Source: Flaccisagitta enflata | Lineage: Eukaryota | Length of the DNA: 64,000 nt | Assembly (NCBI GenBank): GCA_965153355.1 | Contig: OZ231126.1 | Location: forward strand, 18,042,001 to 18,106,000 | Reading direction: 5' to 3' | Shown here: piece after piece, positions 20,411 to 64,000 of the stretch | How positions within the stretch are numbered: the first letter of the stretch is position 1 | How the letters are laid out: every line of letters starts with the position of its first letter | Notes under the pieces: generated by a model | Seen by the model: only the letters and a program-made list of their open reading frames with translations | Told to the model about the DNA's origin: nothing | Database searches by the model: none | Position numbers and translations under genes: made by a program

Positions 20411-21402
20411 TTATGAGTCCAATTCCAGCCGCACAAGCTTCGTGCGGTCTTTCGTCACGATCTTTCCATCTTGGCGCCGGATATGAGCCCTCGGGGCATG
20501 AGCTGGCGAACCCTCGGCGCCCATGTCACGTCCTAAACTCCAGTTGTGACGAGACGGCGTTTCGTCCATGGCGATGACCATGTCATCAATCGCACAGTCT
20601 GTCTCGGATCTCGGCCATTTACTTCGCGCGTGAAGAAGCGACAAATATCCGACCCTCCACGATTTCCAAAATGCATCCACACGCGAGTGCGCACGCCTCC
20701 ATTGAATCTTCGCGGAATCAACGTCAGGATTGGCGCCTTGTTGTACCAGATCTAGAAGGGCATGAGCGAATGTCGATGGATTGAGGATATGATTCGGTGT
20801 CAGGGCCAAAGAGTCAGCAGGATCATCGCTCAGCGCTGTTAGAGGACGGCGATTGAGAGTTCCTTCAACTTAGACGACGGCAGTGTTGAAGGCATCGACG
20901 TGGAGGATGGCGCCAGTAGAGATGGAAGCAAGATGGCGCTTGCAGAGAGCGACGATTCTCTCCCACACCCCTGCATAGTGGTATTCTCGCGTGATAAAAT
21001 CCACGAAGCTGTGCGCTGTGAGTGTGGATACTTCCATTCCTTCTTGAAAGGATGTTATTGAAGCTACCCCAAATTCGTCATAATCTAAGTGGCAGCCGGA
21101 GAATTCTAGGCCTGCACCACTAAGCCACATTGCATCAGCATCAGCTGACATGTTGAAGAGCAATTCCACATGGGCGCGCGTGAGCAGGCAGGTGGTACTG
21201 CGATCCCACACCTTCACTAGGAAATGCTATACCTCAATCCAGTCTCTACAAAAACAGGTGCGGGTAACTTTGTGATCCGATGGGCGATAACTTCATTTGC
21301 TGGTTCGCGTTCTTTGGCTTCTGGCATCTGGCTGCGTGTTGGCAGGCCTGAACGCCTGTATCCACACGCCAGCGTATCATTGTGATGATGGCGGCGAATC
21401 AA
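20411..21402 (-). pseudogene. BEL/Pao pol C-terminus: Zn-binding/integrase core plus DUF5641-like domain
   Basis: ORF pieces IRRHHH...PAPVFVETG, HYAGVWERIVALCKRHL and ALTPNHIL...FWKSWRVGYLSLLHARSKW...WSLGR...KLVRLE. Confidence 0.88.
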
Positions 21403-23427: not shown

Positions 23428-24141
23428 CTACGGCGAATTTGCTGGCGGCAATGACATCGCGCTCGATGATGTCATCACACGCCTTCCTTCTGGGCCACTG
23501 CGCTTGATGGCCCAGTCGAACCGACCAGCGGAGAAGGCTTCGGCGTTATTCGTTAAATCACTTGCCAATCGCGTAAAGCTGATAACCGGCGGCGTATTCC
23601 TGATCGACCGATACATGGCAAAATGCGATAACGTCGCCGACAGCATGACTCCACGTATCTGCGTCATTTGCACTGTTTTTGTTGGAATCCGAAGACTGCG
23701 AATGACGCTGGTACTGATCACGTCGCGATCAGCGCCTGAGTCGATCATATATATCGTCCTCTCGCGCGCCCAGTATTTAAGATAGTCGCAGAGCGCGGTG
23801 GACGGTGCTGCGTCGCGTCCGAAAAGGCGGTTAGCGACATTGCCGTCAACCGCCGATGCGTGGCCTGTAGAAAATGGTGATCGGCTGCCTCGATAGAGTG
23901 GCGAAGATTGTGAGCAGCTGCTGGCGCATCTCTGACTTTGAAAGGGCGGCGACGCGCGCCTTTCTCGCCTTCCCCTTTCTTCTTGTCGCGCCGTGGAAGA
24001 AATGGTGCGTGCGGTTTTGGCAGAGTGTTTTCTGTTCCGCATCTGGCGATCAGCGGCGGATGGCAAGGCGACGCGTTCTGCGAACTCTTCCAGATCGCCA
24101 TCTGGCGGTTGATGACGCGGTTTTTCTGCGATGCATTCCAC
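23428..24141 (-). pseudogene. BEL/Pao gag-protease junction (aspartic protease)
   Basis: IYMIDSGADRDVISTSVIRSL contains the D(S/T)G aspartic protease motif. Confidence 0.75.
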
Positions 24142-26890
24142 TGCCAGGCATTGCAGCGATCGTCAAACAGTCTGCGCCGTTGGTCAAATCTTCTGTGATG
24201 ATGGCTCTTCTCTGTAATGCGACAACGCCGCGATACCTTTTGCAGCTGGCGCTGAATCGCTGCTAATCTCGATCAAGTTGACCAAATTATGTCTTTCATT
24301 CGAAACTGCTGTATTCTTTTTGCATTTATCTGCAGATGAGGGCCTAACTGACGAAAGTCTCCTGCAGCAGCTGTGATAGCGTGTTGCACTTCTCCACAGG
24401 CTCTGTAATAACTGCGCCTTTGCAACCTTGCAGACAAATGAAAATGCCTTGCATGGTCGACCGGCCTAGTTCGCCTCGCTGGCTGTTCGTTGAACAGCGC
24501 CGCAATGTTGAAGCCTTGCCGAAGGCGTAAGTCAAATCTCTCCTCTTGCTGTCGCTTCGGACATCAGTCGTCGCGAGGTGTGATATCGCCGGACCGGCGC
24601 TGGGCAATTCCAATGAGATGTCCGGTAGCGTCAGCAACCAAACTCACATCGCCAAGTCAATGGGCGCTGCGAAGGCTTCTCAGTCTTAACTATACTCCCA
24701 GCAGCCTCCTTTAACCGCGCCGAGATCATTCTCGTAAGTTTGCTCAAAAAACTACTGTCGAAGATGTCGGCAGCTCTGAACATGGCTCGGTGGCGCGAGC
24801 GATGCTCCCTTGAGGTATTTGGGCAGCGTAACGATTCGATCTCTTTTGGTGAACTGCGGCACCGCACTTCCTCTGCTGTTGCCGTTGTTGTGATTCATCT
24901 TGATAGGCTCGAGAGGCAGCGACCTCTACTGTGATTGTACAACTGCTGGCGCTGTTTTTTCTTCGCGCTGCAGCGTCAAAGTCTTCTTCATAACGAGTCT
25001 GGCCTTCAAGCGTCCCTTGCTGCTGGGCGACGATTCTGCTGAACTCCGCTGGCATTGCTAGAAGGCGAAACTGCGTGGCATAACGGCAATCCGATTGGTT
25101 AATCTTCGAGGCGACAACAACATCTTGCAGCTGTTGTCTGTACGTCAGCGACCTCCTCTGCCTCACTGCGCTCGCCTCCGTTACATGCCCGCTTCGGCTA
25201 TGACAACCTTTCTTGATGAAGACGGTGCCATACAGCAGAGCCAATGCCTGGGTACTTCGACGTGAAGAATAAGTTGCATGATGCTGATCTGTGCTGTTGC
25301 TATTGTTGGCGTTGCTGCTGCCGCTGGCTTTGCTGTTGCTGGTATCAGGCGCTGTTGCTGCGCTGCTGCGTGGCTTGCAGCGGCGTTGGCTCGCTGCTGC
25401 TGCTGCTGCTCCATCTGTAGCTGCTACGCTCGGCACTGGCAGGCGTTTCCACTGACTGCACATGTCATCTTCGCCGGTGGGTGTAGATCTCGGCGGTCTT
25501 TTGAATGCTGCGGCTGCTGCTATTCCAGCTCGAACAGTGCCCACAGCTTCATCCGCTGCTCGCCTGTACGCCCGTCGTTATTTATTCCGAGCCGCATTTC
25601 TGATATTCGTATTCATCTGTTGAGTACACGGCACGTGGAAGAGTCAGCGATAATTTCTTGAATGACTTCCGTTGTTGAATAATGTTTGCAGCGATGGCGC
25701 CTGCGAAACTGTGCTACATCTGCTGCCTTCAGCACCATCATGCGCAGTGGATTATTTCTTCTGTGCTCACTGCTGTGTTCATGCTTTCGTAAAATGGTGA
25801 TCTGGCTGGAGATCCACCACCCACAGCTGGGATTGCGGCGAGCCTTGTGCTGCTGCGTGCTGTGCATATTTTCCCCTGCATAGTTTTGTATTTATTTGTT
25901 GTTGTGCACTGCTGCTGCTGCTGTGTGTGTTTATTTACTGACTACCTTTCAGCCACAGGCTGTGGCTGCTGTTGTTGTGATGCTGGTGACAAAATTGGCC
26001 AGTGCTACTGGCTGCTCTTGCTGCAACTCTTTGCTGGGTCAGGCTGTCAGTTTGCTCTTTGCTCTGTGGTCGTGGGTTAACGTTGCTGTGGAGGGTGCTG
26101 CTGCTGCATGCTGCTGTTGCTGCTGTTGCCTTGTAAACATCTCCTCCGTTGACCGCTGCTACCTGTAATCAGCCCGGCGACACTATGCCTCAACTGCCTA
26201 CCCCTGTCTCAGCACTCGCAGCGATGCTTCGCCTGGCGTCAATCGTTGATGTCGCGACTGCTGAAGGCGTCCGTGAATCTGTAACAAGTCGGCAGCGTGA
26301 AGCGCTATAGCGGGATTTCGAGACCGTCTATTACGATGGCGGCATCTCTGAGTCGGCTGGGTGAAAGTGGCCGCCGATCGAAGATTAACGCGCCATCGCG
26401 GCGTGACCGGATCGTCATTTGCGGCATCTTGGAATCGGGCGCGGCTACTATTCCGTGAACCGTTGGCGAGTGCACTGGAGTTCCCCCAATAGTTGGCCGC
26501 ATCGTTCGCGATCATCGCGATGGAAAACCCTCTGGATATTTTCCGCGTCGGCGGCATGGAGTCCATTGGCGCCGGATGGCGCGAAAGGCGCGGGCGGGAA
26601 TTCGCCGGGCATCGGTCGGCGCCATTTCTCGCGTGCGATATGAAATGGGTGAACCCTGTCCCGAAGGCGTGTCGGCGTCATCTGATACGGCGGCGTCGAC
26701 AGTAAAGGCGGCGTCGGCGCGCTCCTTTCGCGAGTGACAACTCGTTCTTCGTGTGGCAAGCGACCTCCGGACGCTATTCAAACCAGGAAATAGTACAACG
26801 GCGTTGAGCGACCGGCACGATGTGCGTAGATAACGGCGCAGCGTCAATTTAGATTTTTGAAGTGGGAAAAAGAAGGCGAGTCGATTTTGG

Positions 26891-27641
26891 TGTTGATGTA
26901 ATCTCCCGCCCAGGTCAACTGGCACTAATCATGGCGTCATCGGCTGGCGACTTATTGGCGTGAAATGAAGGCGATCGTCATTGTTATAAAAATTTCAGCA
27001 ACTGAGAGGAAAGGCGAAAAGTGGCGTTAATTGTGATCAGCAAGCGCAAAGATAGCATGAAATCGAATGAGACACGTAAGGACAGAAGCAGCACATGACA
27101 ACATGTTCCGCTTCTTCGAGGCTTATGCCACCTGATAATACTGCTGCGACTATCGGTAAATTCGTATCAATCCTATAGCAAGCTGTCGAGCAGCAATGAG
27201 TAAAAAATACCAAAGGGCAAAGACGAAGCGAAGAACAATAACAAAAAGCGGCGCAACAAAACGAGCCGCTTCGCGTTGGTTTTCAACGCGATCGCGAAGT
27301 CAAAGTTTATCTGCAATAAAAAGATGAGAGATTATTGAAATTAGTGAATTCCAAGGGCGCATTCAAACGATCATAAAAATCAATCAATCACTTTAAGAAG
27401 CGATGCCATAATTAAATAAAATCAATCAATCCAAAAATAGGATGATACGAATGACGAGTTATGTATGTATGCCTACGTAGTAAAAACAAATGGCACAAAT
27501 CACAAGGCGCAACCATATGATTGCCCATCTAGCGTATAAAAAAATGGCGAAACAAGGCATCGAATGAAGAGAAAACCAAAGCACGCAAAAGAGACAGAAG
27601 GCACACACACCTAAAAGACGGACAGACATACATTTCTAACA
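26891..27641 (-). repeat. 5' LTR of the BEL/Pao element
   Basis: Begins TGTTAGAAAT on the minus strand (plus ...atttctaaca at 27641); direct repeat of 17014-17732. Confidence 0.8.
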
Positions 27642-33532: not shown

Positions 33533-33621
33533 TGTAATCTCTGTGTGTCAGTGTTTCTTTTTCTCTGTGTTTTTCTCTATTTTTGAATGTGTTTGTCTAT
33601 GGCTTTCTCTCGCTCTTTCAA

Positions 33622-33842
<221 letters not shown>

Positions 33843-34893: not shown

Positions 34894-34964
<71 letters not shown>

Positions 34965-35061
34965 AAAAAAAAAAAAAAAAAGGAAAAAAAGAAAAAAGCT
35001 AGGAAAAGAAAGAAAGAAAGAAGGAAAGAAAGAAGGAAAGAAAGAAAGAAAGAAAGAAGGA

Positions 35062-35097
<36 letters not shown>

Positions 35098-35189
35098 AAA
35101 ATGAAAAATGAATTACCGAAAGAAGGAAAGAAACAAATTGACGAAGAAATAAACAAAACAAAAAAAGAAAAAACAAAAGAAAGAAAGAA

Positions 35190-35228
<39 letters not shown>

Positions 35229-35346
35229 AAGAAAGAAAGAAAGAAAGAAAGAAAAAAGAAGGAAAGAAGGAAAGAAAGAAAGAAAGAAAGAAAGAAAGAA
35301 GAAGGAAAAAAAGAAAGAAGGAAAGAAAGAAAGAAAGAATGGGAAA

Positions 35347-35414
<68 letters not shown>

Positions 35415-35543
35415 AAAAAAGAAAGAAATAAGGAGCGAAGGATAGAAGAAAGGAAGGGAGGAAAGAAGGAAAGACATAGACAGCAGGAAAGAAAGAAAGA
35501 AAGAAAGAAAGAGAGAAGGAAAGCAGGAAAGAAAGAAAGAAAT
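34893..35543. repeat. (GAAA)n/(GACA)n compound microsatellite
   Basis: GAAA tetramer runs with a GACA block. Confidence 0.97.
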
Positions 35544-36933: not shown

Positions 36934-38476
36934 TAAGTGTAAGGTAAGTATGATTGATATCTTGCATTGCTCACCCTTTTATTGAATTCCCTTCTTTAGA
37001 ATAATTCTTTTTGTTTGATCATTTTTGTATCCATTTTTATAAGGTATGTTTGTGCGCTGGCGTTCATCTATGTATTACATCACGTCAAAAACAGAGGGAA
37101 CATCCAATGAATGAAGTTTAAAATGAATGAATGAAAGAATTGACAAATGGAAGCACATACGAAAAGTTGAAAACATATTGCACTTACCATATAAGATGTG
37201 ATTGAATGTGAACAAAAGATAGATTGATTGAACATATGGATGAATGAATGAATGAATGAGTGAATGAATGAATGAATGAATGAATGAGAACACACTAGTC
37301 TGTATTTGCACCGTGTACTTTAAACTAGGAGTACTGCCACTTTTATGACGGTTTCTGGTGGTCCAACCCATGTGTAATCTATGGCAAATGAGTGCAAAAA
37401 ATTTCCCAGAGCGCTTTTTGAAATATTCACATTTTTTACTTTCATGAAGTACAGGTCATTGAATTTTCCCTTTTTTGGACGATCAACCTTGTTTTGCTTA
37501 TAACTTTTAAACGAATCGAGCTAGAAATGCCAGATTGGTCCCATTTTAAAGATCTCTTCAAGATCTTTCCAACCGTCACCGATTTTTTGTAAATCCGTTC
37601 AAAAACAACTGAGATATAACTTGTCAAACATAAGCAATTTCATGGGGATCGTGGACAATTTCCCAGGTTGTGGAATTTTTCTTATTTTTGGAACAATTTA
37701 CATGTTTTGCTTGTAACTTTTGAACGAATTAAGCTAGAATTGCCAGATTGGTCCCATTTTAAAGAATTTTTGAAGCTCTTTCAGACAGTCACAAATTTTT
37801 TGAGAATCCGTTAAGAAATGGCTGAGATTTGACTTGTCAAACATGAGTAATATCATGGTGATTTGAAGTGATTTTCCCACCATCTTTTTCAGTCTTATTT
37901 TGACTTTAGATACCTCCTTCGCTCCTTACATCTGTTTAAAAGTCATTATATGTATGTCAGCTCATCATTGTAGTCTGTCAGTCAGTCTGTTGGCCTTTGG
38001 AAAGGGCTGATTTGAAAATAGAAAGGGTTGATAAGAGGCTTGACAGTGCTGATTTGAAGCTTGGGAGGGCAGAATTGTCGATTGAGGTATAAAAGGGCTG
38101 AATTGAGGTATGATAAGGCTGAATCGAGGTTTGAGAAGGTTGAATTGAGGACTAAGAAGGCTGACCAGAGGAGGGGGGATGAACAAATGAAAGGAACCAG
38201 GCACTTAAGGGCAATGTGGTCAATGATACTTTATAGGTAGCGGTCCCTAAGGGGACAAACTCCTGGACTTTCGTTGGTCCATCCGTCCTTCCATCTATTT
38301 GTCTGTATTCTTGTCACCCCCATCAAGAATCTAGCCCTCCAAGGCCTGAATTCTGCCCTCTCAAGCCTGAAATCTGCCCTCTCAGACCCATAATTTGCCC
38401 TCTCATGCTTTTGATTTGCCCTCTCAGGCATAGTATCTTCCCTCGCAGGCTTCAGATCTGCCAACTCAGGCCTACA

Positions 38477-40177: not shown

Positions 40178-40765
40178 GTCGCAAAAGTGTTAGATGGTCA
40201 GCAGTACCTGTTGCCCCTTTGTGAATGTATGTGGGTATGAGGTGGTTAGAAGGGCAGCGGCCCCGAAGGGGCCGATGACCTATGCTGTTTTTATTTGAGC
40301 CTCAAGGCTGGAATTGGGGCCTTAAGGCTGGGATTTGGGCCTTAAAGCTGGGATTTGAGCCTTGAGGCTAGGATTTGAGCCTCAAGGCTGAGATTTGAGC
40401 CTCGAGGCTGGGATTTGAGCTTTTTGGCTGGGAACTGAGCCATGAGGCTATGATTTGAGCCTCAAGGCTGGGATTTGAGCTTTGAGGCTGGGATTTGAGC
40501 CTCGAGGCTGGGTTTTGAGCCTGGAGGTTGGGATTTGAGGCTCAAGGCTGGGAGTTGAGCTTTTAGGCTGGATTTTGAGCTTTGAGGGCTGGAAAATGAG
40601 CCTTCAGGCTGGAAAATGAGCCCTGCGACTAGAATTTGAGCTTCGGAGCCGGGGGGGGGGGGACAGAGAAGGAGAAGAAGAAGAAGAAGAAGGAGGAGGA
40701 GGAGAAAATCTCCCATATGTGTGAGAGCATAGGTCATCCGCCCTTTCGGGGCCGCTGCCCAAAAG
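40178..40765. mobile_element. Family B minisatellite-bearing element
   Basis: agtcgcaaaagtgttagatggtcagc...gggcagcggccccgaaggggccgatgacctatgct; (gaggctgggatttgagcct)n core; inverse of 49334-49981. Confidence 0.8.
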
Positions 40766-43700
40766 GGCAGATTTGTAACCTGTGAGGACAGATTTTAGGC
40801 CTCAGTTGGCAGATTTGAAGCTTGTGAGGGAAGATATTATGCTTAAGAGGGCAAATTATGGGTCTGAAAGGGCAGATTTCAGGCTTGAGAGGGCAGAATT
40901 CAGGCCTTGGAGGGCTTATTCCAGATCTAGAAGGCTAGATTCTTAATGGGTGTGACCAAAATACAGACAAATGGATGGAAGGACGGATGAACCAACGAAA
41001 GTCTACTGAGTTCTACATGAGTTTGTACCCTTAGGGACCGCTGCCTATAAAGTATCAATTACCACATTGCCCTTAAGCACCTGGTTCCTTCTATTTGTTC
41101 ATCCCCCCTCCTCTGGTCAGCCTTCTTAGTCCTCAATTCAGCCTTCTCAAACCTCCATTCAGCCTTATCATACCTCAATTCAGCCCTTTCATACCTCAAA
41201 TCAGCACTGTCAAGCCTCTTATCGACCCTCTCTATTATCAAATCAGCCCTTTCCAAAGACTTATAGACTAACTGACAGACCAATAGATGAACTGACATAC
41301 ATATAATGACTTTTAAACTGATGTAAGGAGCGAAGAAGGCATCTAAAGTCAAAATAAGACTGTGAAAAAGGTGGTGGGAAAAATCGCCAAAATCACCATG
41401 ATATTGCTCATGTTTGACAAGTCAAAACTCAGCCAAAAAATTTGTGACAGTTTGAAAGAGCTCTGGTCAGCCTTCTTAGTCCTCAATTCAGCCTTCTCAA
41501 ACCTCGATTCAGCCTTATCATACCTCAATTCAGCCCTTTTGTACCTCAATTGACAATTCTGCCTTCCCAAGCTTCAAATCAGCACTGTCAAGCCTCTAAT
41601 CAACCCTCTCTTTTATCAAATCAGCCCTTTCCAAAGGCCAACAGACTGACTGACAGACTACAATGATGAACTGACATACATATAATGACTTTTAAACAGA
41701 TGTAAGGAGCGAAGGAGGTATCTAAAGTCAAAATAAGACTGAAAAAGATGGTGGGAAAATCGCTCCAAATCACCATGATATTGCCCATGTTTGACAAGTC
41801 AAATCTCAGCCATTTCTTAATGGATTCACAAAAAATTTGTGACAGTTTGAAAGAGCTTCAAAAATTCTTTAAAATGGGACCAATCTGGCAATTCTAGCTT
41901 AATTCGTTCAAAAGTTACAAGCAAAACAAGTAAATTGTTTCAAAAATGAGAAAAATTCCACAACCTGGAAAATTGTCCACAATCCCCATGAAATTGCTTA
42001 TGTTTGACAAGTTATATCTCAGTTGTTTTTGAATGGATTTACAAAAAATCGGTGACGGTTGGAAAGATCTTGAAAAGATCTTTAAAATGGGACCAATCTG
42101 GCATTTCTAGCTCGATTCGTTTAAAAGTTATAAGCAAAACAAGGTTGATTGTCCAAAAAATGGGAAATTCAATGACCTGTACTTCATGAAAGTAAAAAAT
42201 GTGAATATTTCAAAAAGCGCTCTGGGAAATTTTTTGCACTCATTTGCCATGGATTACACATGGGTTAGACCACCAGAAACCGTCATAAAAGTGGCAGTAC
42301 TCCTAGTTTAAAGTACAAGGTGCAAATACCGAGTAGTGAACAATGAATTTCCAAATCCATGAATCATTGAATACGCGGATTAATCAATGAGATGAGAGCA
42401 AAAAAAAATTACCAACAAAAAAAAATCTGTAAGACACAATGAAACATGTAAGACACAATGAAAAATATGCAGAAAATAGCCATTATCATAATGCTTATTC
42501 TTTATAAATTAGCAAATAGATTTCAAACTTGTAAAAAATGTTAAATAAAATAATTTTTTTATTTGTAGCTAACATTTCCAGACTTTTTTGATCACATCAA
42601 TATTACCGTTTGAGGAATAAGGTTCTGTAGAGCTTCATAAAAAGGGCAAGTCCAGGGACCCCTATTATGTTAGATCCTAAAATGTACATAGTACTTTAGA
42701 AAACACATATCTAGGCTTGCTTGAACCAATTTTAGGTGCGTATGAGAATGTCATAAAAAAATAGGCAAAATATGGCCATAATTAGTTAATTTTGGCTATT
42801 TTTTGCCCTAAAACCTATCTTTAACTTGGAAAAGAGCCTAGAAATTTTTAGGCGCCTAAAATAGACCCGAATTAGGCTGTATGTAAAAAATTTTGAGATT
42901 CTGACTGTTTCTAGATACTTAAATTTGATTCTGACTGTTTTTAGGTACTTAAATTTAAAAAAAAACATTGTTTTTGCAATTTTTTTTAAGAAAAAAAATA
43001 TTGTTACCCCCCTTATTGTTGACCGATTTTGACAAAATTTTTACTGGAGGTACTTGACATCATGGACTACCTTCATATAAGATTGTATTCAAATTGGAGC
43101 GCTGTAAGTACTGAAAATTACGTTCGAAATGAAAAAAATTGATAATTTGCATAAAAAATATGAAATTATCAATATTTAGCTTATTATAATAGATTTTGCA
43201 TAATTTTTTTTGTTTTGTAATCAAGAAGTAACATACTTACAAAAACTGTTTTCAAAAATGATTGAATTAGATGTAAATTTTTTGACCTTATTGAAAGCCA
43301 AATTTCTCGTGATCTTGCTCCGTGTCATAACTTGAAAAATAATCATCGTAGAAACCTCTGGTTGGCACCATTTGAAAGAAAAAAATAGCTTAGCTGTAAG
43401 TATCAAAAAAATATCACCCCAGCCCAAAAACTACCCAAAATTAAAAGTGGAAAACTTTATTTCTCCTCTACGTTTCAAAAAGTCGAATTACGTAATTCGA
43501 CTTTTTTTCAACAGTTATAAGTGATCTGAAGAATCGCTTGTACTCAAGGACATGGGAGAGTGATTTGATTTTTGGCTGAACATGGTTCACAACCACTGAA
43601 CATCCAATGTTGAGGCAGATGAGAGATAAAAAGAGAGAGAAAAGAAATTTTGACCATATGAAAACCATCACCGTTTGAAACCTCTGCAAATGATCTTTAC

Positions 43701-50996: not shown

Positions 50997-51678
50997 TGGT
51001 CGCCCAAGGGCAATATGTGGTCAGCGATACCCGTTGCCCTGCTTTGAGTGATTGTGAATTGGAGTGAGGGGAAGCAGGGCAGCGGCTCCAAAGGGGAGGA
51101 AGTCCTGTAGAACACAGGGGGACTTTCGTTCGTCCTACCTAAAGAAGTGGATGAGATGCTATAGAGGGCTGACTGAAGGCATTCAAGAGCCTAAACTGAG
51201 GTCTAAGATGGCTGATATAAGGCCTGAGAATGCCAATTGGGAGCTTGAGAGGGCTGACTTGAGGCTTGAGAGAGCTGGATTAAGGCTTGAAAGGCTAGAG
51301 GACTGATTTGAAGCCTGAGAGGCCTAATATGAGGCATGAGAGGCCAGGTTGAAGGCCTGAGAATTTGGATTTGAGGCCTGAGAAGCCAGATTTGAGGCCT
51401 GAGAGGTCAGATTTGAGGCCTGAGAGGCCTGAGAGGCCAGATTTGAGGCCTAAGAGGCCAGATTTGAGGCCTAAGAGGCCAGATTTGAGGCCTCAGAGGC
51501 CAGATTTGAGGCCTGGGAGGCTGGATTTGAGACCTGAGAGAGCTGGATTTGAGAGGCCTGAGACCTAACTTTAGGCCTGAAGGGTCTGAGTGGGGGACTA
51601 TAACGGAAACGAACGGACGAACGAAAGTCCCCCTGTGTTCTACAGGACTTCGTCCCTTCGGGGCCTGCTGCCCAAAAA
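50997..51678. mobile_element. Family B minisatellite-bearing element
   Basis: ggtcgcccaagggcaatatgtggtcagcgatacccgttgccc; (gaggccagatttgaggcctaa)n core; inverse of 31221-31752. Confidence 0.8.
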
Positions 51679-56504: not shown

Positions 56505-57102
56505 AAAAAGAAAAAAAAACTTTAAAAAAAGAAAGAAAGAAAGAAAGAAAGAAAGACGGAAAGACGGAAAGAAAGACAGACGGAAAAAAAGACAGACGGA
56601 AAAAAAGACAGACGAAAAGAAAGACAGACAGACAGAAAGAAAGAGACGGAAAGAAAGACAGACAGATTGAAAGAAAGAAAGAAGGAAAGAAAGACAGACA
56701 GAAAGAAGGAAAGAAAGACAGACGAAAAGAAAGAAAGACAGAAGGAAAGAAAGAAAGACAAACGGAAAGAAAGAAAGACAAACAGACGGAAAGAATGAAA
56801 GACAGAAAGAATGAAAGACAGAAGGAAAGAGAGACAGACAGACGAAAAGAAAGACAGACAGAAAGAAATAAAGACAAACGGAAAGAAAGAAAGACAAAAG
56901 GAAAGAAAGACAGACAGAAGGAAAGAAATACAGACAGATGGAAAGACAGAAAGACACGGAAAGAACGAAAGACAGATGGAAAGAAAGAAAGAAAGACAGA
57001 CAGAAAGAAAGACAGACGGAAAGAAAGAAAGACGGACTGAAAGACAGAAAGACAGATGGAAAGGAAGGACAGACAGAAAGAAAGAAAGACAGACGAAAAG
57101 AG

Positions 57103-57180
<78 letters not shown>
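56505..57180. repeat. (GAAA/GACA/GACG)n compound microsatellite
   Basis: Purine-rich tetramer mosaic. Confidence 0.97.
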
Positions 57181-57733
57181 GAAGATACCGGAGATAAAAA
57201 GAGCAGAAAGAAAAGAAAAGCGGAAAAAGGTAAGCGAAATATGAGGGAAGGAAAGGAAAAAATTCAATCCGCATTCTGATCTAATCGCCAACGTGAAAAA
57301 ATTGACTGCTTCGCTTTGCTTGGCACTCTGCATAGCCTCTCTGTACACCACCGCACGTAGACTGCTGGACAGATGATTACTTAAGTTCCCGTTACATAAA
57401 ATGGGTATAGAAACTTGCTGTTGGAGATTCTAGGGGGGAAAATTGTCATACCGAACTGGTGAAATCGGAAGAAACTAAAGGTTCAATTTTTTTTCAAGAT
57501 TTTTTTCATTTTGTGAACGATGAAGAATACAAGAGGTTGAAGGTCGCGCAAGGTCTCAATCTTTTACAAATAGCATCTCGAATGTTTTTGCCAACTTACA
57601 TGAAGATCCATCAAGGTTCGCAATATGACCTTCCCTATTGGAACAATGACGCATGAAGCTACTTCTACTTCACTTGAATGAGAGTTCATTAATGCATGGC
57701 TCCATGGATATTACGCCATAACATGATACAGTA

Positions 57734-58161
57734 CAGACTGAATGAAAATACAACGTTAGCAGTCCAGAGGAGTGACCTAAATCTATATCAGTACCCCCTA
57801 CAGCCCATATAGGAAGTGATATGAGGTCAAATAGGGTATCAATCAAATGCTTGTGTTTAATTTAAGTGGCGCCATCGAGGCGATTTCCTCCTATTTACTG
57901 AGATACAGGCTATAGAAAGTGCTCAAAACAAGCTTTTTCAACTTTTTTTCAAAACAGCAAATTTGGACCCTTTAAGGGGCTGTATCTCATGAACTGAGCT
58001 GAATCTTCCAAATCCCTTCGATGGCGCCTCTTGTATTAACATAAGCTTTCGATTGGTACCCTACATGACCATGTAGCACCTCCTGAATTCGCTTTAGGGG
58101 GTACTGCTATAGATTGGGCTCACTCCTCTGGACTGCTCTCGTTGTATTTTCATTCAGTCTG
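57734..58161. mobile_element. Near-palindromic Tc1/mariner-type MITE
   Basis: TA-cagactgaatgaaaatacaacg...gcagtccagaggagtga ... tcactcctctggactgc...cgttgtattttcattcagtctg-TA. Confidence 0.88.
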
Positions 58162-58313
58162 TATCTTCTCCCTTACATCAGAAGTACCAATGGCAAATAC
58201 CATTTTCTTGATCATGTCATTCTAGCGCACTCGACCCAACATGCATCACAGCAACAGCTCTAGAAGCACACAAGTAACCAAAAGGTGAAAATAAATTGTG
58301 TAATGTTATTGAC

Positions 58314-58486
58314 CTGTTGTCGTGCTTTTTTGATCATATCGCATAGCCGTGAGAACACCTCGACGATGTTCATGGGCGGACTTTTAGGGCAGGCCTCGAT
58401 GTAGCCGACGTCGAGCTGCGACGCCATTGCTTTGCCTTGAGCACTCGAAACTTTGCGTATGAAAATCGGACCCACGTTATTCGCGA
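58314..58486 (-). CDS. Ras-like protein exon 4 (VANNVG…RKVSSAQGKAMASQLDVGYIEACPK…NIVEVFSRL)
   Basis: cccag|TC...CAA CAG|gtc. Aligns by eye to the Ras C-terminal half (VGNKxD, RxVxxxxG, YIETSAK, NVxxxFxxL). Confidence 0.85.
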
Positions 58487-58640
58487 CTGGGAATGGTTAA
58501 AACGTTTGTAAGATTGTGCTCGGTAAATAACCACGTTTGGCCCCAATCGCCCGGTTGTTGAGATTTTGAAAATAACACTTCAACGGCTTTTCCAAATTCT
58601 AGGGCCATTTTAAACATACATATTCATAATCAGACCTTAC

Positions 58641-58744
58641 CAAGTAACATCGGCGGCGGGCAAAAGGAATAGGACGAAGATTCTTCGCTTGGAACGAGGA
58701 GGGAATGTAACTGGCGGTGTTTTTGAGCTATTGATAAGATTTGC
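58641..58744 (-). CDS. Ras-like protein exon 3 (QILSIAQKH…PPPMLL)
   Basis: aacag|G...CTT G|gtaag; phases fit both neighbours; PMLLV precedes the G4 position. Confidence 0.82.
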
Positions 58745-58949
58745 CTGTTCGAGAAGAGAACGAAGACAAGGGGAAATTAGTTTGAGTCGATGCAAATACA
58801 TTTCCCACCTACAAAAAAACAATTGGTGGTTCATTGGAATTGCTAATTGAGAGCGGGTGAATAATTTAGACCAGTAACAAGGACTCAGAACTAGAGAGGC
58901 AGAAAACACTGGAGCTATGTTCGAGCTGATTCTTTGCAAATACACATAC

Positions 58950-59371
58950 CCGTGAATTTCCGGGATTTTATTGAAGCTTTCTAGGCTGGTGACGGAATAA
59001 ATGAGGAGAAATCCATCCGGGAAATTCTCCTCTTCTATGAAGCGCTTGTCGATAGACTCCCAATTGATGGTCCGACACGCGGACGATTGGGCAAAGAGGG
59101 CGGCGGCCGTAGCACCACCGGGTTCCCCCGTCGCGCCTTCGCCGGAAAACGAAAGGGCGATCGAATCGGTAGGTATATCGGCACCATCGCCGCCGCCATC
59201 GTCTCCACCAACACTTCCGCCGCTGCCGCGACCGTCCTCGGCTTCCCAGGACTCGATTGTTAGAAATGCGCTCTCTTTATTGATCTCTCTTTGCAACGTG
59301 TAGCTTTGATCCACTTGAGGGTCGAATTCATCGCAGTCCTGGTCGGTGGGTATACTATTGCCGAAAATGTA
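58950..59371 (-). CDS. Ras-like protein exon 2 (…EFDPQVDQSY…DGFLLIYSVTSLESFNKI)
   Basis: cgcag|TAC...CAC GG|gtatgt; DGFLLIYSVTSLESF is a typical Ras-family segment. Confidence 0.88.
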
Positions 59372-59553
59372 CTGCGAGGGTGAGAGAGAGAGACAAAGAA
59401 CGTAAGTCGTTAATAATCAGTTGCACGCGAGCAATTACTGTTCTACATAAATCAAGTCTCAAACTCAGTCTCTACTACGGTATATCGATACCCGACTCTT
59501 TGCAAAATACATGTATACCTTAAGCATAAGTACATGCATTAGTACATGTATAC

Positions 59554-59802
59554 CTTAAGCAGCAGCTCATTCTTGCCGATGGCGCCCTTTTCTCCGGCAG
59601 CGACTACGTGATACTTGGGCATCTTGTTATCGTCGTTGGCTTTTCTCCCACGGCCTCGGCCGCACGTGCATAAATCTCCGAGTACATCTTGACTGCTGGT
59701 CTTCCTCGCGGGCGGCGAGACGGCCGAGGACTCGTTAAAAGCCGCGTACTTCTGCGCTTGTTTCTTTTTCGATCCCGAGAAGAAGGAAAGTTTCGACGTC
59801 AT
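59554..59802 (-). CDS. Ras-like protein exon 1 (MTSKLSFF…KYHVVAAGEKGAIGKNELLLK)
   Basis: ATG at 59802 to AAG|gtatac, phase 0; degenerate P-loop. The start codon is inferred. Confidence 0.78.
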
Positions 59803-60075
59803 CGGCGTCCTTCCTCGAGACCGGGCTTTTTTTTTCAACTTTGAAACCAATTCTTTCTCTTTTTTAAGTTGTTTGGTTTGTTTATTTTCCTTTTCCAAAA
59901 GGAAATTGTTAATGACCAAATGAAACACGAAACATCCTCTTCGAAACGCAAGGCACGACTAGTCAATTTCACTCGTCCAAGAAGCCGGAATCGTTGGTAG
60001 CTGTAACATAACGCGGGACTAACAAGTTAGCAAAATAAATAAGTTTCATATCTTTTCATAACATCAATGAGAGCG

Positions 60076-61257
60076 TCAAACATCACTCAGTAATCGCGGC
60101 AAAACGACATTCTCAATGTGTTCCGAGTTCAACCGCTCCACGACCAATGTCGTCCTCGATCGACAACCGGCCGAGTTTTTCGCTTGACTGTTGCCGTAAG
60201 TCGGATCGTAATGTTCGAGCAACATCGATTCGACGAATTCGCTCCATCTTCCGTCGTCGATTAATGTATTCCATTTGTCCATCCTCTCCGTCGACACGAC
60301 TCTCGAAGACAGCGTCGACAAAGCAGCTTTCAGTAAAACCGGATCGCGGACGAAGTAATCGTAGTCTTCGATGGTATGTCTAACGCGTTCTTCCAAGGGC
60401 ACGACGAGATCGACACGAGGGGCTTCCTTCATCGCGTCAAAGAGTCGATCGGGAACCACGCAATTGCCGATTCTTTTGGATTCCGATTCGACCCAAACGG
60501 GAGCATTGACGTCGAAATTCCTCAATTCTCGCCAAAGCAGAGATTGCCATAGCAGAGATTCGAACACTTTTTGCTTCGGTTGGTCGTCGTTGGGATATCG
60601 TCCCAACACCGAGCCTTTGTGTTTGGCGAGATATTCCAAGTCTAGCACTTGCGCGCCGGCTTGGCGTTTCGCGTGACGCAAGATGGCGGATTTGCCGCTT
60701 CCAGTGGGACCGGAAATAACGCGAAAGTCAAATTTCGACGGCAACGTTTGTAAGTCGGCTCTCACACGCTCGCGATATCTCTTATGTCCACCTTCCAGGA
60801 CAACGACGTCGAAGCCGACGTTAGCCAGCACCAAAGCCAGGCTGTGAGATCGCAATCCGCCTCGCCAACAGTAAATCAAGGGCGAGTAATCTGCCGGATT
60901 ATCTAAAAACCTCTCGTCGATGATTCTGCCGATGTTGGCGGAAATGAGCGCTGCGCCCGTTTTGTGTCCCTGAAAAGCGTCTTTCGCGTGGAGCTTGCCC
61001 ACGGTGGCGCGCTCGGCCTCGTTGAGCACCGGAAGATTGATCGATCCGGCGATATGATCTTCCTGATACTCGGCGTTAGTTCGGGCGTCGATAATCTCGT
61101 GAAATCGAGGATGTTCATGACCATCATTGAGAGCTAATTGTGGAAACGCTTCGTCTACGGTGCAAATTTTGGGTACTTTCGTCTTACCAGAGTATCTAGT
61201 TACAGTAGCTATTGTCCTACGAAAGCTAGATGGCGGAAGTAGTCTCTTTGAGAACAT
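60076..61257 (-). CDS. selU: tRNA 2-selenouridine/geranyl-2-thiouridine synthase (SelU/MnmH/YbbB family), 393 aa, intronless CDS, with N-terminal extension
   Basis: Rhodanese domain (IIDARTNAEYQEDHIAGSINLPVLNEAERATVG; active-site loop YCWRGGLRS; LEGGHKRYR) fused to a P-loop domain (GPTGSGKS, DLEYLAKHKGSVLG, QPKQKVFE, VESESKRIG, HYDPTY). Confidence 0.95.
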   Translation of the reverse strand: MFSKRLLPPSSFRRTIATVTRYSGKTKVPKICTVDEAFPQLALNDGHEHPRFHEIIDARTNAEYQEDHIAGSINLPVLNEAERATVGKLHAKDAFQGHKTGAALISANIGRIIDERFLDNPADYSPLIYCWRGGLRSHSLALVLANVGFDVVVLEGGHKRYRERVRADLQTLPSKFDFRVISGPTGSGKSAILRHAKRQAGAQVLDLEYLAKHKGSVLGRYPNDDQPKQKVFESLLWQSLLWRELRNFDVNAPVWVESESKRIGNCVVPDRLFDAMKEAPRVDLVVPLEERVRHTIEDYDYFVRDPVLLKAALSTLSSRVVSTERMDKWNTLIDDGRWSEFVESMLLEHYDPTYGNSQAKNSAGCRSRTTLVVERLNSEHIENVVLPRLLSDV

Positions 61258-61802
61258 GTCTGGGAAAAAGATAATATCATTTTTATTAAGTTTTCGGAAA
61301 AAAGTAAAGATAAAGTGAAAATGATAAATAGGTCTTGTATTTGCATCATGATAATTTACATCTAGTGTGCTCGGAAATAAAATAATCTTTTGTTAGCGAA
61401 TGAGAATTTACAACGCAAAATACGGAAATTAAGAACAGCCTAACTAAGTTGAGTTTAATTGAAGCCGTTATAACGTTTGAGAAATGATTGAACTCAAAAG
61501 AAAAACAAACAAATACTTGAAAACAAAAATATTCGTAACTGGATTGGATATTCAGGGGAAACGACGTTCGAAAGCAAATCATCCAAAGATCTTTTTTTTT
61601 CAGTTTTGAATTAGGCGAAATTTACTCCATATTATGGAGATACAAATAGAGACAAATGTACGACACGCTATCAATATCTAAATCGTTGACGAAGTCAAAA
61701 TGGAGAAGCGTTTTTTTTTTTCGGTCGAATCGAAAATGCGATGTTACAGAGAGAAAAAGATTTGCGTGAGAAGAAAAGAAGCTTAGAAAAGCGATTGCGA
61801 AT

Positions 61803-61967
61803 TTAAAGGTTGTAATTCTTGGGATGCACGCTCTGGGGCGGTTTGGAGAAGGAAACCCTCAGGTGCATGCCGCGAAGTTCGCGGTTGTGCACGTAGATGA
61901 GCGCGTGGACGGCCTCTTCCAACGACGACATCGTGATGTGCGCCATTTTCCGGTTGTCCTGGAAAAA
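61803..61967 (-). CDS. PTB: Polypyrimidine tract-binding protein, last exon (RRM4 end)
   Basis: [28 protein letters not shown]…HLRVSFSK; gacag acceptor and TAA stop. Confidence 0.95.
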
Positions 61968-62107
61968 CTGTCGAGAGAAAAGAGAGGAATGGCAGAGTTA
62001 AGAATTTTCTGTCGAATTCAGCTTTCGCTGGAATTGTGGCAATTTAAGAGTGTCGGCCACGGACGCCTTCAAGAAGTGGAGTTTACAGTGGATAATCCCT
62101 TAGTCTA

Positions 62108-62511
62108 CAGGTAGGACCCTAATAAGAGCGGAGGAGGGACCCAAAGTTTTAGCATCACCCCCTACAGCTTATGTGGCTCAAGCAAATTTCTCACTTGCTG
62201 TGGCGGAATATATCTTGGGTGGATACAAGTGGCGCCACCGCGGCAATTTTTGAATTTCCACCTAGAACACCCCCAAATTATCAAAATTGAAGAAAAAATT
62301 GTTAGATTTTTTGGGGGGCCTCTGAGGGTGATTTTGCGAAATCTAAGGGTGTTCTAGGTGGAAATTCCAAAATCGCCACGGTGGCGCCAATTGTATCCAC
62401 CTGAGGTATAAACCGCCATAGCAAGTGAGAAGAATGTTTGAGCCATTTAAGCTGTAGGGGGTGATGCTAAAACTTTGGGTCCCTCCTCCGCTCTTATTAG
62501 GGTCCCGTCTG
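62108..62511. mobile_element. MITE with ~165-bp TIRs in a PTB intron
   Basis: TA-caggtaggaccctaataagagcggaggagggacccaaagttttagcatcaccccctacagctt ... reverse complement ...ggtcccgtctg-TA. Confidence 0.92.
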
Positions 62512-62680
62512 TAATTTGTTGAAAACGCCAAATCATTGTTTCCGGACTATTGCGCGTTGCTGTACATGAAATTAGCAGTGTTTGCGCGCACAGTTTCAAT
62601 GCAGTTTCAATGCAGTTTCAATGAGCGGAAAACAAAACGCACGTGCCATCGCGCCTTCGCCGTACGCGACGCACCGTTAC

Positions 62681-62838
62681 CTTGAAGAGGACAACTTGGC
62701 CGTGCTCCCTGAAGGGTGCCTGGATTTCGCCTTCCGTCGCGCCCTCGGCAATGTTGGAGATGTGCAACGTCGTTGACGGCTCGAAGATGTTGGAGGAGTT
62801 CTTGGAGCCGGGCTTCTTGAACCGATGGAGAGGTGAAC
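62681..62838 (-). CDS. PTB: PTB exon (SPLHRFKKPGSKN…PSTTLHISNI…)
   Basis: The highly conserved SPLHRFKKPGSKN linker; aacag|GT...AAG|gtaac. Confidence 0.97.
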
Positions 62839-62977
62839 CTGTTGTCGAAGAAAGGAATGATGAGCAAATTCAATTTCGCACATCGCCAAGTGACGTCAAA
62901 TTAAATTAGATTCAGGTGTTCGAACTTTTCATAGGATAGTTTTCCCAGTTCAATTCATCGCCTGTAACTAAGTATAC

Positions 62978-63134
62978 CGGTGTAATCCTTGGTCAGCTCG
63001 GCTCCTTCGAGGCGATCATCCTTGGTGCGCTGAACGTGTTCGTTCTTGGAAGGACTGACGTTCATCGGCTTGCCAAAGAGCGGAACCTTGTCGAGATGCT
63101 GACGCGAGATGGCCGCCATCCATGGCTCAGTCAT
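62978..63134 (-). CDS. PTB: PTB exon (RRM3 C-terminal half, …LFGKPMNVSPSK…LTKDYT)
   Basis: cacag|ATG...ACC G|gtatac; phases are consistent. Confidence 0.95.
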
Positions 63135-63272
63135 CTGTGGGGGAAAAGAGATTTAAGAGAGAGGGGGAATGATTGAAATTAGCCTATAGAAGTAGTTCAG
63201 GCAGATTGACGAATGTACACAAAGTCCAATTTTCATCAACCTATATCATTACAACTGTATCGATTTCGCCAC

Positions 63273-63517
63273 CTGAATGAGCGCGGTGTCTTTCTTGGCG
63301 AAAAGAATCTTGACTCTGAGGACGTCGCCGTAGACGCCAAAGAGTGTGAAGAGGACGTCGGGCGTCACTCGGGTTTCCTCCAAATTGGAAACGATGAGGA
63401 CGCAGCCGCCTCTTTGCATGCCACCTGGCATTCCCATCAATCCCATGCCCTCGGCGGGATTGCCGAATCCGCTCATGCCCCGGCCGCCGAACTGGTTGTT
63501 GTCGCCGCCACTTTGAT
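63273..63517 (-). CDS. PTB: PTB exon (RRM3 N-terminal half, [43 protein letters not shown])
   Basis: Close match to the PTB RRM3 consensus; cgcag|AT...CAG|gtggc. Confidence 0.97.
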
Positions 63518-63795
63518 CTGCGCGAAGAGACGAAGAGGATTAGGAGGAAATTATGAATGCTACTTGATGGGCACGAGGCGCGTGATAAGGTTGGTTAGAC
63601 AACCAACACGGTCGCGGTTTAAGAGGTTCTTCACATTTCTTAGGGCGCTACAAACGTGCAGACGGACTGACTATAAACACGCACATGGCATTGTGTTGTT
63701 GTCAGCGCGGCAGCCCGCGAAATGTCTCGATACAGTCAATTACACTTAAATTAATTACACTCAAATTCTGATTATCTTAAAAACACAGTACTTAC

Positions 63796-63879
63796 TTCCT
63801 GCGACGCTATTAAAGCCCTTTTGAAACATTTCTTGAAATTTCGACCAATCCCAGCCTTGAATCTCGTTTGGATTGGGAG
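63796..63879 (-). CDS. PTB: Probable PTB linker exon (PNPNEIQGWDWSKFQEMFQKGFNSVAG)
   Basis: tccag|CT...GGA A|gtaagt; 84 nt, open, phase 1-1, in frame with the next exon. The gene continues beyond the window. Confidence 0.7.
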
Positions 63880-64000
63880 CTGGATAAGTTTAAATTCAAA
63901 AAGATAGAAAAAGACATTGAATTCTTTTGCCACCATAATCACGAAACGAGATTGAAATTTGAGATTGGTCCAACGTTCTTAATTTAGGCGCTATGTCTCT

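Follow-up and report, generated by a model that had tools for sequence, protein, structure and literature searches.

A gene for tRNA 2-selenouridine synthase (SelU/MnmH) lies on the minus strand of the 64-kb stretch of Flaccisagitta enflata DNA analyzed here (64,000 nucleotides; hereafter, the window), where an open reading frame (ORF) of 393 codons plus a stop codon runs from ATG to stop at positions 60076..61257. The translated protein begins MFSKRLLPPSSFRRTIATVTRYSGK and includes the loop YCWRGGLRS, with Cys130, and the motif GPTGSGKS at residues 183-190. The coding sequence contains no intron, and transcript contigs are colinear with it over 59941-61259 (run X1, 60266-61259; run X2, 59941-60893 and 60864-61259); the intact, intronless 393-residue frame described in the initial annotation, which gave no strand, is thus borne out and assigned to the minus strand. 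Upstream on the same strand is an RRM/PTB-like gene whose last four coding exons occupy 61803-61967, 62681-62836, 62976-63134 and 63273-63517, with another exon beyond 63796. Four GT..AG introns of this gene are seen as transcript joints, and its exons match RRM_5 (E 1.9e-17; second exon, 25.6 bits, just below the cutoff of 27), which is consistent with a gene of the PTB/hnRNP-L type. Downstream, also on the minus strand, a weakly Ras-like gene extends over 58260..60006, with an ATG at 59802 and exons to 59554, at 59371-58949, at 58743-58641 and from 58486 down, which are connected by three GT..AG joints; its matches to the Ras Pfam model are sub-threshold only (E 0.22 and 0.037 on two exons, colinear in the profile). 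The earlier description of spliced genes on both sides, the first of PTB type, therefore stands, but its label "Ras-like" stays below the Pfam threshold. No tRNA genes were found in the window.

The window SelU is an expressed nuclear chaetognath gene in an operon-like array. Thirteen RNA runs from five studies contain part of the stretch, and transcripts were aligned to the window for 4 of the 14 listed runs. Across the ORF, marine metatranscriptome contigs of runs X1, X2 and X6 are 95-99+% identical to the window; they jump the introns of the neighboring genes at GT..AG, leaving the intron bins empty; from run X14, only six raw reads align, which are 90-95% alike, lie exclusively on a PTB exon and come from another species. 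The trans-splice acceptor AG (ttttcccAG|AC ATG, minus strand) is located at 61260..61261, and contigs end at 61259. The reverse complement of the 25 unaligned letters at 61259 in one X2 contig is the exact 3' end of the chaetognath spliced leader SL1, as are 24 of the 26 unaligned letters at 60006 in one X1 contig, so that the evidence for SL1 amounts to one assembled contig per gene rather than raw reads. The SL1 sequence has been published for two chaetognath species (PMC2481426 Table 3), and the window itself contains no match to this leader at up to three mismatches. Together with the GT..AG introns of both neighboring genes, the leader identifies the host as an arrow worm. The mature SelU mRNA accordingly reads SL1, AC and AUG, the leader being joined at an AG that precedes the start codon by two bases, and because of this position, the first AUG of the mRNA opens the 393-residue frame including its N-terminal extension. 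Coverage of the ORF by metatranscriptome contigs, one bearing SL1, also answers in the affirmative the question of transcription left by the initial annotation.

The 3' untranslated region (UTR) of the PTB-like gene occupies 61259..61802 on the minus strand, as judged from contig depth over 61298-61848, and contains an AATAAA at 61287-61282; one X1 contig stops at 61259 with 15 unaligned T, equivalent to an A-tail on the minus strand, although contigs cannot prove RNA ends. At this contig level, polyadenylation of the upstream transcript probably takes place right beside the SelU acceptor. On the other side, SL1 is added to the downstream transcript 70 nt past the SelU stop codon. We propose that the same-strand array would be transcribed in the order PTB-like gene, SelU and Ras-like gene and resolved into individual mRNAs by SL1 trans-splicing.

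The substrate of MnmH/SelU is (x)m5s2U34 of tRNA-Lys, tRNA-Glu and tRNA-Gln, which the enzyme turns into ges2U and se2U. The identity of the window gene as a genuine SelU/MnmH/YbbB orthologue in an animal nuclear genome, which the earlier annotation had recognized from the Cys loop of its rhodanese domain and from the Walker A motif, is confirmed by these motifs and by the NCBIfam MnmH equivalog models: NF008752 scores 391.3 bits against a cutoff of 266, with residues 48-383 matching profile positions 14-343 of 357, and TIGR03167 and NF008750 score 315.2 against 219.75 and 289.2 against 241, respectively. The rhodanese domain (residues 48-162; 60772..61116, minus strand) is matched by Pfam Rhodanese at E 4.2e-09 and carries the MnmH-type inserted helices, and the P-loop domain of the AAA_SelU type (about residues 177-383; 60109..60729, minus strand) is delimited by the equivalog alignment and fold matches; PF26341, the model for the latter domain, is precomputed on all relatives listed. 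The codon of the catalytic Cys130, the counterpart of MnmH C97, lies at 60868..60870, and the Walker A motif lies at 60688..60711, both on the minus strand. According to PMC4830565, selenation by Salmonella MnmH depends on C97, which geranylation does not strictly require; for geranylation, the Walker lysine K155 is needed. Cys130, G87 and the Walker A residues G183, G186 and K189 do not vary in any of the 57 aligned rows, including all animal rows.

The MnmH-type insertion in the rhodanese domain, of about 33-36 residues, is present, and the equivalog alignment continues unbroken across it; its residues G87, F95 and G101 do not vary in the 57-row alignment, and it is modeled as helices at residues 80-92 and 94-117 with a pLDDT of about 97. 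This insertion, which contains the G67 position of MnmH, is absent from single-domain rhodaneses; as we read the alignment, which has no Salmonella row, G87 of the window protein would correspond to G67. The AF2 model of the window protein has a mean pLDDT of 90.4 and a pTM of 0.86. In Foldseek searches, the best match of the rhodanese half was 3g5j, a SelU-type N-domain (TM 0.79), and the P-loop half matched NMP-kinase/dephospho-CoA-kinase-like folds; no full-length SelU structure was found in the PDB by sequence or fold, and the nearest clusters in the ESM Atlas are all MnmH, mostly bacterial. The window enzyme is full-length and apparently catalytically competent.

In the trees, the window SelU groups with homologues of six bivalves, two gastropods, one annelid and one flatworm. 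All 17 animal-type rows of a 64-row tree fall on one side of a branch with an SH-aLRT of 98. A 91-row mixture-model tree, from which three long-branch rows (P0288, P0315 and P0336) were dropped, recovers a chaetognath clade (99) and a mollusc/annelid clade (85), which belong to one larger group of 23 rows (94); the clade formed by the 19 animal rows is weakly supported (66). This tree supersedes a 94-row FastTree, whose backbone collapses into a polytomy and which does not resolve animal monophyly. When all 20 animal rows, including Macrostomum, were constrained to group together, the tree scored 35 lnL units above the free search, with a p-AU of 0.84, and was the best obtained. The scaffolds that carry several of the named homologues measure 1.5 to 104 Mb, and four anonymous orthologues, 96, 72, 60 and 56% identical to the window protein, have the N-terminal extension or its region in common with it. 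Twenty relatives that were looked up include three named animal records (P0211, P0234 and P0236) and one gammaproteobacterial MAG. Because a profile search with the SelU alignment returned no named non-animal eukaryote, the label "eukaryotic" for the anonymous extended rows derives from their N-termini only; the animal SelU clade belongs to a broader set of N-terminally extended, probably eukaryotic sequences.

These trees place the window SelU in an old animal lineage whose other members come from molluscs, one annelid and one flatworm, spiralians in every case. Of the two origins that the initial annotation had offered, horizontal acquisition or ancient retention, the grouping with other animals thus favors an old lineage, and recent horizontal transfer into this genome alone is ruled out; its expectation that homologues might already be auto-annotated in other invertebrates agrees with the database records. 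Base composition is indecisive as a test of horizontal transfer: the GC content of the ORF is 0.51 as compared with 0.53-0.57 in the neighboring exons, and its GC3 is 0.56 as compared with 0.70 pooled over 462 neighboring exon codons.

The N-terminal extension (about residues 1-29; 61171..61257, minus strand), which is delimited by alignment, composition and the model, is absent from bacterial MnmH. The conserved rhodanese start is at residue 54 in the window protein versus a median of 18 in bacteria (177 rows in which this start was found, 8 of them at 35 or more), and it falls at residues 34-71 in all 15 full-length rows of the animal clade, each of which bears some 30-50 extra residues that are basic and poor in Asp and Glu. 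The first 25 residues of the window protein contain six K+R, no D+E and seven S+T, which upholds the acid-free N-terminus noted earlier over that length; the corresponding means are 4.27 K+R and 0.40 D+E in the 15 animal-clade rows and 2.10 K+R and 3.80 D+E in bacterial rows starting with Met. Residues 1-20 are not part of the confidently modeled fold (pLDDT 51-58); a lone helix at 9-25 has low pLDDT, and the maximum 11-residue hydrophobic moment of the N-terminus is 0.75. Inspection by eye located R-[YL]-[SA] near residues 21-23 in the four chaetognath-clade N-termini, which we take to resemble the R-2 cleavage motif (MPP-type, Arg at -2 or -3). Many anonymous extended relatives likewise start with Arg/Ser-rich, acid-free N-termini. 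A signal peptide was ruled out by eye, the first 25 residues having no hydrophobic core. Since the window protein has no internal Met before residue 276, no shorter isoform could arise from a downstream start. Judging from composition, length and the apparent resemblance to a cleavage motif, the roughly 29-residue basic, acid-free extension probably acts as a mitochondrial presequence.

Taken as a whole, the locus is best explained as a genuine, expressed SelU of an old animal lineage in chaetognaths, the extension of which would direct its import into mitochondria, and we give this combined reading a slightly better than even chance. The substrate must differ from the one first proposed, the tRNA-Lys, tRNA-Glu and tRNA-Gln encoded by mitochondrial DNA (mtDNA): as written, this proposal cannot hold here, since the portions of PMC11886574 dealing with chaetognath mtDNA describe the loss of many or nearly all tRNA genes. 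With few or no tRNAs encoded in the mtDNA of chaetognaths, either the substrates would be nucleus-encoded tRNAs imported into mitochondria, on which a mitochondrial SelU would act in chaetognaths, or the enzyme would be cytosolic.

The second of these possibilities, that the same SelU is cytosolic or dually located and acts on cytosolic tRNA-Lys, tRNA-Glu and tRNA-Gln with mcm5s2U34, the extension being a eukaryote-specific appendage, strikes us as appreciably less probable, though it deserves serious consideration. Selenophosphate synthetase is a cytosolic enzyme in animals, which favors a cytosolic SelU, as do the missing mitochondrial tRNA genes, many or nearly all of them according to those portions of PMC11886574, and the only partial dependence of bacterial SelU on the C5 side chain reported in PMC4830565. 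However, a presequence-type composition has been kept in 15 of 15 full-length animal-clade proteins that are otherwise only 40-73% identical, and the extension has no hydrophobic core and no other recognizable function; moreover, no internal start codon would yield a shorter form, and Arg/Ser-rich, acid-free N-termini recur in the many anonymous extended relatives. A selenophosphate synthetase (SelD/SPS) would be expected alongside SelU in the same organism; nothing of the kind was seen within the 64 kb.

Retention of the enzyme for a role other than selenation, either S-geranylation of 2-thiouridine only or S/Se transfer on another substrate, appears unlikely. The two activities of MnmH are separable, geranylation requiring the Walker motif and not the Cys (PMC4830565), and the chaetognath clade has Leu (CWRGG-L-RS) where molluscs and most bacteria have Gln (CWRGG-Q-RS). 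Both points would suit such a role, but the catalytic Cys is invariant throughout the 57 rows, with every animal row included, and the MnmH equivalog score is that of a full-length protein.

The allele in the window also carries an in-frame, imperfect tandem duplication of 15 nt (60529..60546, minus strand), recognized from transcript contigs and alignment, which adds the residues QSLLW at 238-242. It is particular to this allele, being missing from the X1 and X2 contigs and from all other alignment rows, including P0002 and P0003, and it falls within a helix of the P-loop domain, where the local pLDDT drops to 65. If this five-residue insertion disabled the enzyme, the gene would be decaying, and both the position of the insertion in that helix, with its dip in pLDDT, and its absence from wild transcripts and all homologues could be read in this way. 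We nevertheless consider decay very improbable, given that the reading frame is unbroken by any stop or frameshift and that wild transcripts, from the same or a sibling species, are without the insertion and otherwise 95-99% identical, on which account SelU would be intact at the species level. Among 40 of the 93 rows of the comparison between wild transcripts and the window ORF, 17 differences are listed, of which 9 are synonymous and 8 non-synonymous, 6 of the latter falling outside the conserved core; this count is indecisive and shows no clear sign of purifying selection over the short term.

An artefact, whether through contamination with bacterial DNA, a chimeric assembly or the very recent horizontal insertion of a non-working gene, can be given next to no credence, despite the intronless ORF, its 45-51% identity to bacterial MnmH and a GC3 (0.56) below that of neighboring exons (0.70): the mRNA bears the chaetognath SL1 at an AG acceptor, the upstream 3' UTR reaches this acceptor, trans-splicing of the downstream gene takes place 70 nt past the stop, four orthologues at 96, 72, 60 and 56% identity have the extension or its region, and the gene is placed in the animal clade. 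The transcript contigs and SL1 together rule out contamination or chimera.

In the passages of PMC4561486 and PMC1273633 that concern it, the selenouridine trait (SelD plus YbbB) is treated as prokaryotic in comparative genomics, and the abbreviation list of bioRxiv 10.1101/014928 gives "ybbB: selenouridine synthase (prokaryotes)". We found no paper describing an animal SelU in the searchable literature, although the ybbB-profile datasets of PMC4561486 may already list eukaryotic matches, and literature searches returned none discussing the mollusc, annelid or flatworm annotations. More tentatively, and with less than even confidence, we suggest that spiralians, and probably several protist lineages, may run a selenouridine/geranyl-thiouridine pathway on organellar tRNAs through a presequence-bearing SelU and, in chaetognaths, on imported cytosolic tRNAs. 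If true, selenium-modified tRNA in eukaryotes would thereby gain its first genetic basis, and because chaetognaths have lost mitochondrial tRNA genes, SelU would bear on the modification of imported tRNAs, re-modifying cytosolic tRNAs inside mitochondria. If the enzyme is mitochondrial, selenophosphate must enter or arise in the organelle, an addition to known selenium biology. The animal SelU proteins are concrete candidates for finding out whether se2U or ges2U is made in any eukaryote, and in what part of the cell, and the bivalves that possess SelU make the biochemistry practical.

Bacterial MnmH/SelU/YbbB of E. coli and Salmonella resembles the window protein in its rhodanese domain with insert, P-loop domain, Cys loop and Walker A motif; many bacterial members are 43-51% identical to the window protein, which passes the equivalog cutoffs. 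Unlike the bacterial genes, the window gene is animal-nuclear, SL trans-spliced and part of an operon-like array with eukaryotic genes, and its product has the roughly 29-residue basic, acid-free N-terminal extension and the Leu of the chaetognath-clade active-site loop in place of Gln. The same tree clade contains the auto-annotated mollusc proteins (Mercenaria, Ruditapes, Mactra, Tegillarca, Mytilus, Mizuhopecten, Batillaria and Babylonia) and the annotated SelU of the annelid Owenia and the flatworm Macrostomum, which have a presequence-like extension in all full-length proteins examined; they are, however, only 40-49% identical to the window protein, and the chaetognath branch is separate and deep. 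The spiralian homologues carry the annotation names "tRNA 2-selenouridine synthase-like", "mnmH" or "SelU". The split SelU of archaea (Methanococcales), encoded by two adjacent genes, comprises the same two domains, which are fused in the window protein as in bacteria, and its models TIGR04568 and TIGR04569 match only weakly (59 and 23 bits versus cutoffs of 200 and 180).

MTU1/TRMU, GTPBP3 and MTO1 are eukaryotic mitochondrial wobble-uridine enzymes of bacterial descent that are near-universal and experimentally localized, whereas SelU is patchy, the named animals all being spiralians, and its location is a predicted one. If import holds true, SelU would resemble these enzymes, by description, as a further nucleus-encoded, bacterial-type U34 enzyme with a presequence acting on tRNA-Lys, tRNA-Glu and tRNA-Gln.

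The gene for tRNA 2-selenouridine synthase (SelU, also MnmH or YbbB) runs through positions 60076..61257 of the window as 393 codons from ATG to TGA, as the initial annotation had it, and lies on the minus strand; the predicted rhodanese Cys loop (YCWRGGLRS, Cys130) and Walker A motif (GPTGSGKS, residues 183-190) are both present. Its product, P0001, begins with MFSKRLLPPSSFRRTIATVTRYSGK in translation. Three NCBIfam MnmH equivalog models matched P0001, all above their curated cutoffs, the best being NF008752 (391.3 bits against a cutoff of 266, E 3.3e-117), which aligned in a single stretch (residues 48-383 on profile positions 14-343 of 357); Pfam Rhodanese was also matched. Across 57 aligned rows of animal-type and bacterial proteins, there is no variation at Cys130, at the Walker A residues G183, G186 and K189, or at G87, F95 and G101 in the rhodanese insertion specific to MnmH; the features reported to define MnmH are C97 (selenation), the Walker Lys (geranylation) and a 36-aa insertion (PMC4830565). 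The AlphaFold2 model (mean pLDDT 90.4, pTM 0.86) places the core from about residue 50 at pLDDT >90 and residues 1-20 at 51-58; residues 9-25 are modelled as an isolated helix. Foldseek matched it to the SelU-type rhodanese domain 3g5j (TM 0.79) and to NMP-kinase-like P-loop folds, and sequence and fold searches of the PDB returned no full-length SelU structure. Judged by every sequence feature examined, the gene is a clear member of this already known enzyme family, and the assignment by sequence is secure, the matches being far above chance.

The proposed extra, presequence-like N-terminus held up: it is absent from bacteria, and basic and acid-poor in all 15 full-length animal-clade proteins. 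In these, the rhodanese domain has its conserved start 34-71 residues in; for 177 bacterial proteins, the median position is 18, and eight of them start at 35 or beyond. Among their first 25 residues, the animal-clade proteins have on average 0.40 acidic and 4.27 basic ones, as against 3.80 and 2.10 in bacteria, a character kept despite an overall identity of only 40-73% among the animal-clade proteins. Homology of P0001 to bacterial proteins sets in near residue 30 (ICTVDEAF), which leaves about 29 residues as animal-specific. The extension contains no signal-peptide-like hydrophobic core, and P0001 has no internal Met before residue 276. We lean towards reading the extension as a cleavable mitochondrial presequence.

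The function and location of SelU we infer from its sequence. Molluscs and annelids have full sets of mitochondrial tRNAs, and for them the idea first proposed, with tRNA-Lys/Glu/Gln encoded in mtDNA as substrates, stands unchanged. It does not stand as worded for this chaetognath, since chaetognath mtDNAs have lost many or nearly all tRNA genes (PMC11886574). Given this loss, a mitochondrial SelU would need imported nucleus-encoded tRNAs, and SelU in chaetognath mitochondria may act on these. The alternative to imported substrates is a SelU that is cytosolic or dual-located, which we regard as rather unlikely.

The closest relatives of P0001 are four anonymous sequences (96, 72, 60 and 56% identity), presumably other chaetognaths, that form a tight clade with it. 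Named animal homologues come from bivalves (Mercenaria, Ruditapes, Mactra, Tegillarca, Mytilus and Mizuhopecten), the gastropods Batillaria and Babylonia, the annelid Owenia and the flatworm Macrostomum, all of them spiralians, among which chaetognaths are now placed; several lie on scaffolds of 1.5-104 Mb. Auto-annotation in other invertebrates had been anticipated, and records are indeed already titled 'mnmH', 'SelU' or 'tRNA 2-selenouridine synthase-like'.

In a first tree (64 rows, LG+C20), all 17 animal-type rows fell on one side of a branch with SH-aLRT 98. An exhaustive profile search yielded 1973 relatives (E <= 1e-30); of the 149 new top representatives, 37 have their conserved start at least 33 residues in, and many of these 37 extensions resemble organellar targeting peptides. 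A FastTree run including the newly found extended relatives was unresolved. In a mixture-model tree of 91 rows, with three long branches left out, the chaetognath clade (support 99), a mollusc/annelid clade (85) and four anonymous extended proteins formed a 23-row group (94), nested in a 29-row group (92) in which all but one gammaproteobacterial MAG are extended; 16 further extended rows lay outside. The 19 rows from chaetognaths, molluscs and annelids formed one clade with a support of only 66, and constraining all 20 animal rows together, including Macrostomum, gave a likelihood 35 lnL units better than a free short search (p-AU 0.84). What the trees support best is one SelU lineage that is old and shared by these animals (spiralians); it belongs to a broader assemblage, probably eukaryotic, and the trees do not place its root and bacterial sister. 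Between the two origins considered in the initial annotation, recent horizontal transfer and ancient retention, the phylogeny points to an old lineage, and recent transfer into this genome is excluded by the grouping with it. The anonymous SelU homologues P0241 and P0246 and their relatives (512-546 aa; 10-13 environmental records each) group near the animal clade and have Asn/Ile/Lys-rich extensions of about 170-185 residues; they may come from protists whose SelU bears a long targeting domain or an additional one.

Five studies of marine metatranscriptomes supplied 13 RNA runs that contain part of 59300-62300, and four of 14 listed runs were aligned to 57800-64000. Assembled contigs of three marine runs (X1, X2 and X6) span the SelU ORF colinearly, mostly at 95-99+% identity, without a joint within 59941-61259. 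Seven joints occur in the neighbouring genes, each of them GT..AG when read on the minus strand, and their intron bins are empty or nearly empty of contigs, so the contigs represent spliced RNA and not DNA. The described setting between spliced PTB and Ras-like genes is thus upheld for the splicing of both and for the upstream gene, which has RRM_5 exons; the Ras likeness of the downstream gene is weak.

Contigs end at 61259, directly after genomic ttttcccAG and two bases before the SelU ATG, and 25 non-genomic letters extend one X2 contig beyond this point. The same leader letters occur in one X1 contig at the downstream gene's 5' end (60006), and have no match within the 64-kb window at up to three mismatches. 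Reverse-complemented, they are the exact last 25 nt (SelU) or 24 nt (downstream gene) of chaetognath SL1, published for Spadella cephaloptera and Flaccisagitta enflata (PMC2481426 Table 3). SL1 on the transcripts therefore identifies the host as a chaetognath; in this phylum, trans-splicing affects about half of all genes, and 18% belong to operons (PMC12460157). Transcription, which the initial annotation had left for checking, is confirmed by metatranscriptome contigs covering the ORF, one of them SL1-bearing. Because the printed SL1 sequence lacks an ATG, no AUG precedes Met1 in the mature SelU mRNA, and translation includes the N-terminal extension. One X1 contig terminates at 61259 in a 15-T run (a minus-strand A-tail), upstream of which lies AATAAA (61287-61282, minus strand); at the level of a single assembled contig, this suggests that the poly(A) site of the upstream gene abuts the SelU acceptor in operon fashion. 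Contamination as the source of SelU is rejected, given the colinear transcripts, SL1 and the spliced flanking genes. At the downstream gene, the SL1 contig has two additional letters, GC, where it meets the genome at 60006 (60001-60012, minus strand); the window has no AG directly before 60006, the closest ending at 60001, and since several contig/window differences lie nearby, this acceptor may differ between alleles.

The window allele of SelU carries an imperfect in-frame tandem duplication of 15 nt in the P-loop domain (60529-60546, minus strand), adding QSLLW; it is missing from the X1 and X2 transcript contigs and from all homologues, and could reflect variation between individuals or strains, or an artefact of the assembly. 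Within the loop of the active site, residue 135 (60853-60855, minus strand) is Leu in chaetognath-clade proteins (CWRGG-L-RS) and Gln in mollusc/annelid rows and the bacterial consensus (CWRGG-Q-RS), a clade-specific difference adjoining the catalytic Cys.

Elsewhere in the window, a GC-rich block at about 18300-26900 (GC 0.49-0.54, compared with 0.35 over the first 16 kb), with dense medium ORFs on both strands, is probably a decayed retroelement. One of its ORFs matches DUF5641 (20411-20869, minus strand), a C-terminal domain of BEL/Pao retrotransposon polyproteins; the match is likewise consistent with an animal genome. Long purine/pyrimidine microsatellites, (AGAA) x 162 at 34894-35542, (AAAG) x 164 at 56524-57185 and (TC) x 119 at 33606-33842, account for strong local GC/AT skews and spurious all-frame ORFs (KKERKKER, FLSFFLSF). 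Further repeats are two different 213-bp units of about 1.9 tandem copies each (37490-37901 and 41754-42143), a 20-bp minisatellite of 17 copies (40293-40641) and a 114-bp repeat of two copies (51313-51540). Positions 1-16000 are AT-rich (GC about 0.35-0.39), contain no stop-to-stop ORF of at least 110 aa, and may represent a long intron or a gene-free intergenic region next to the gene-dense, operon-like window end.

Taken as a whole, the earlier interpretation is partly supported and has been sharpened; it holds for the family, the old origin and the presequence-like extension, and gives way on mtDNA-encoded tRNA substrates in the chaetognath. We found no description of an animal or mitochondrial SelU in the literature searched; supplements and subscription journals lay outside it and may hold an earlier mention. 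The string 'selen' is absent from the chaetognath genome paper. Comparative papers use ybbB as a prokaryotic marker (PMC4561486, PMC1273633, bioRxiv 10.1101/014928), and a microalgae review describes mnmH as mainly bacterial (PMC10215577). Three things are new: the chaetognath setting of SelU, SL1 trans-spliced and operon-like; a spiralian-wide clade bearing presequence-type extensions; and the tension with the loss of mitochondrial tRNA genes.
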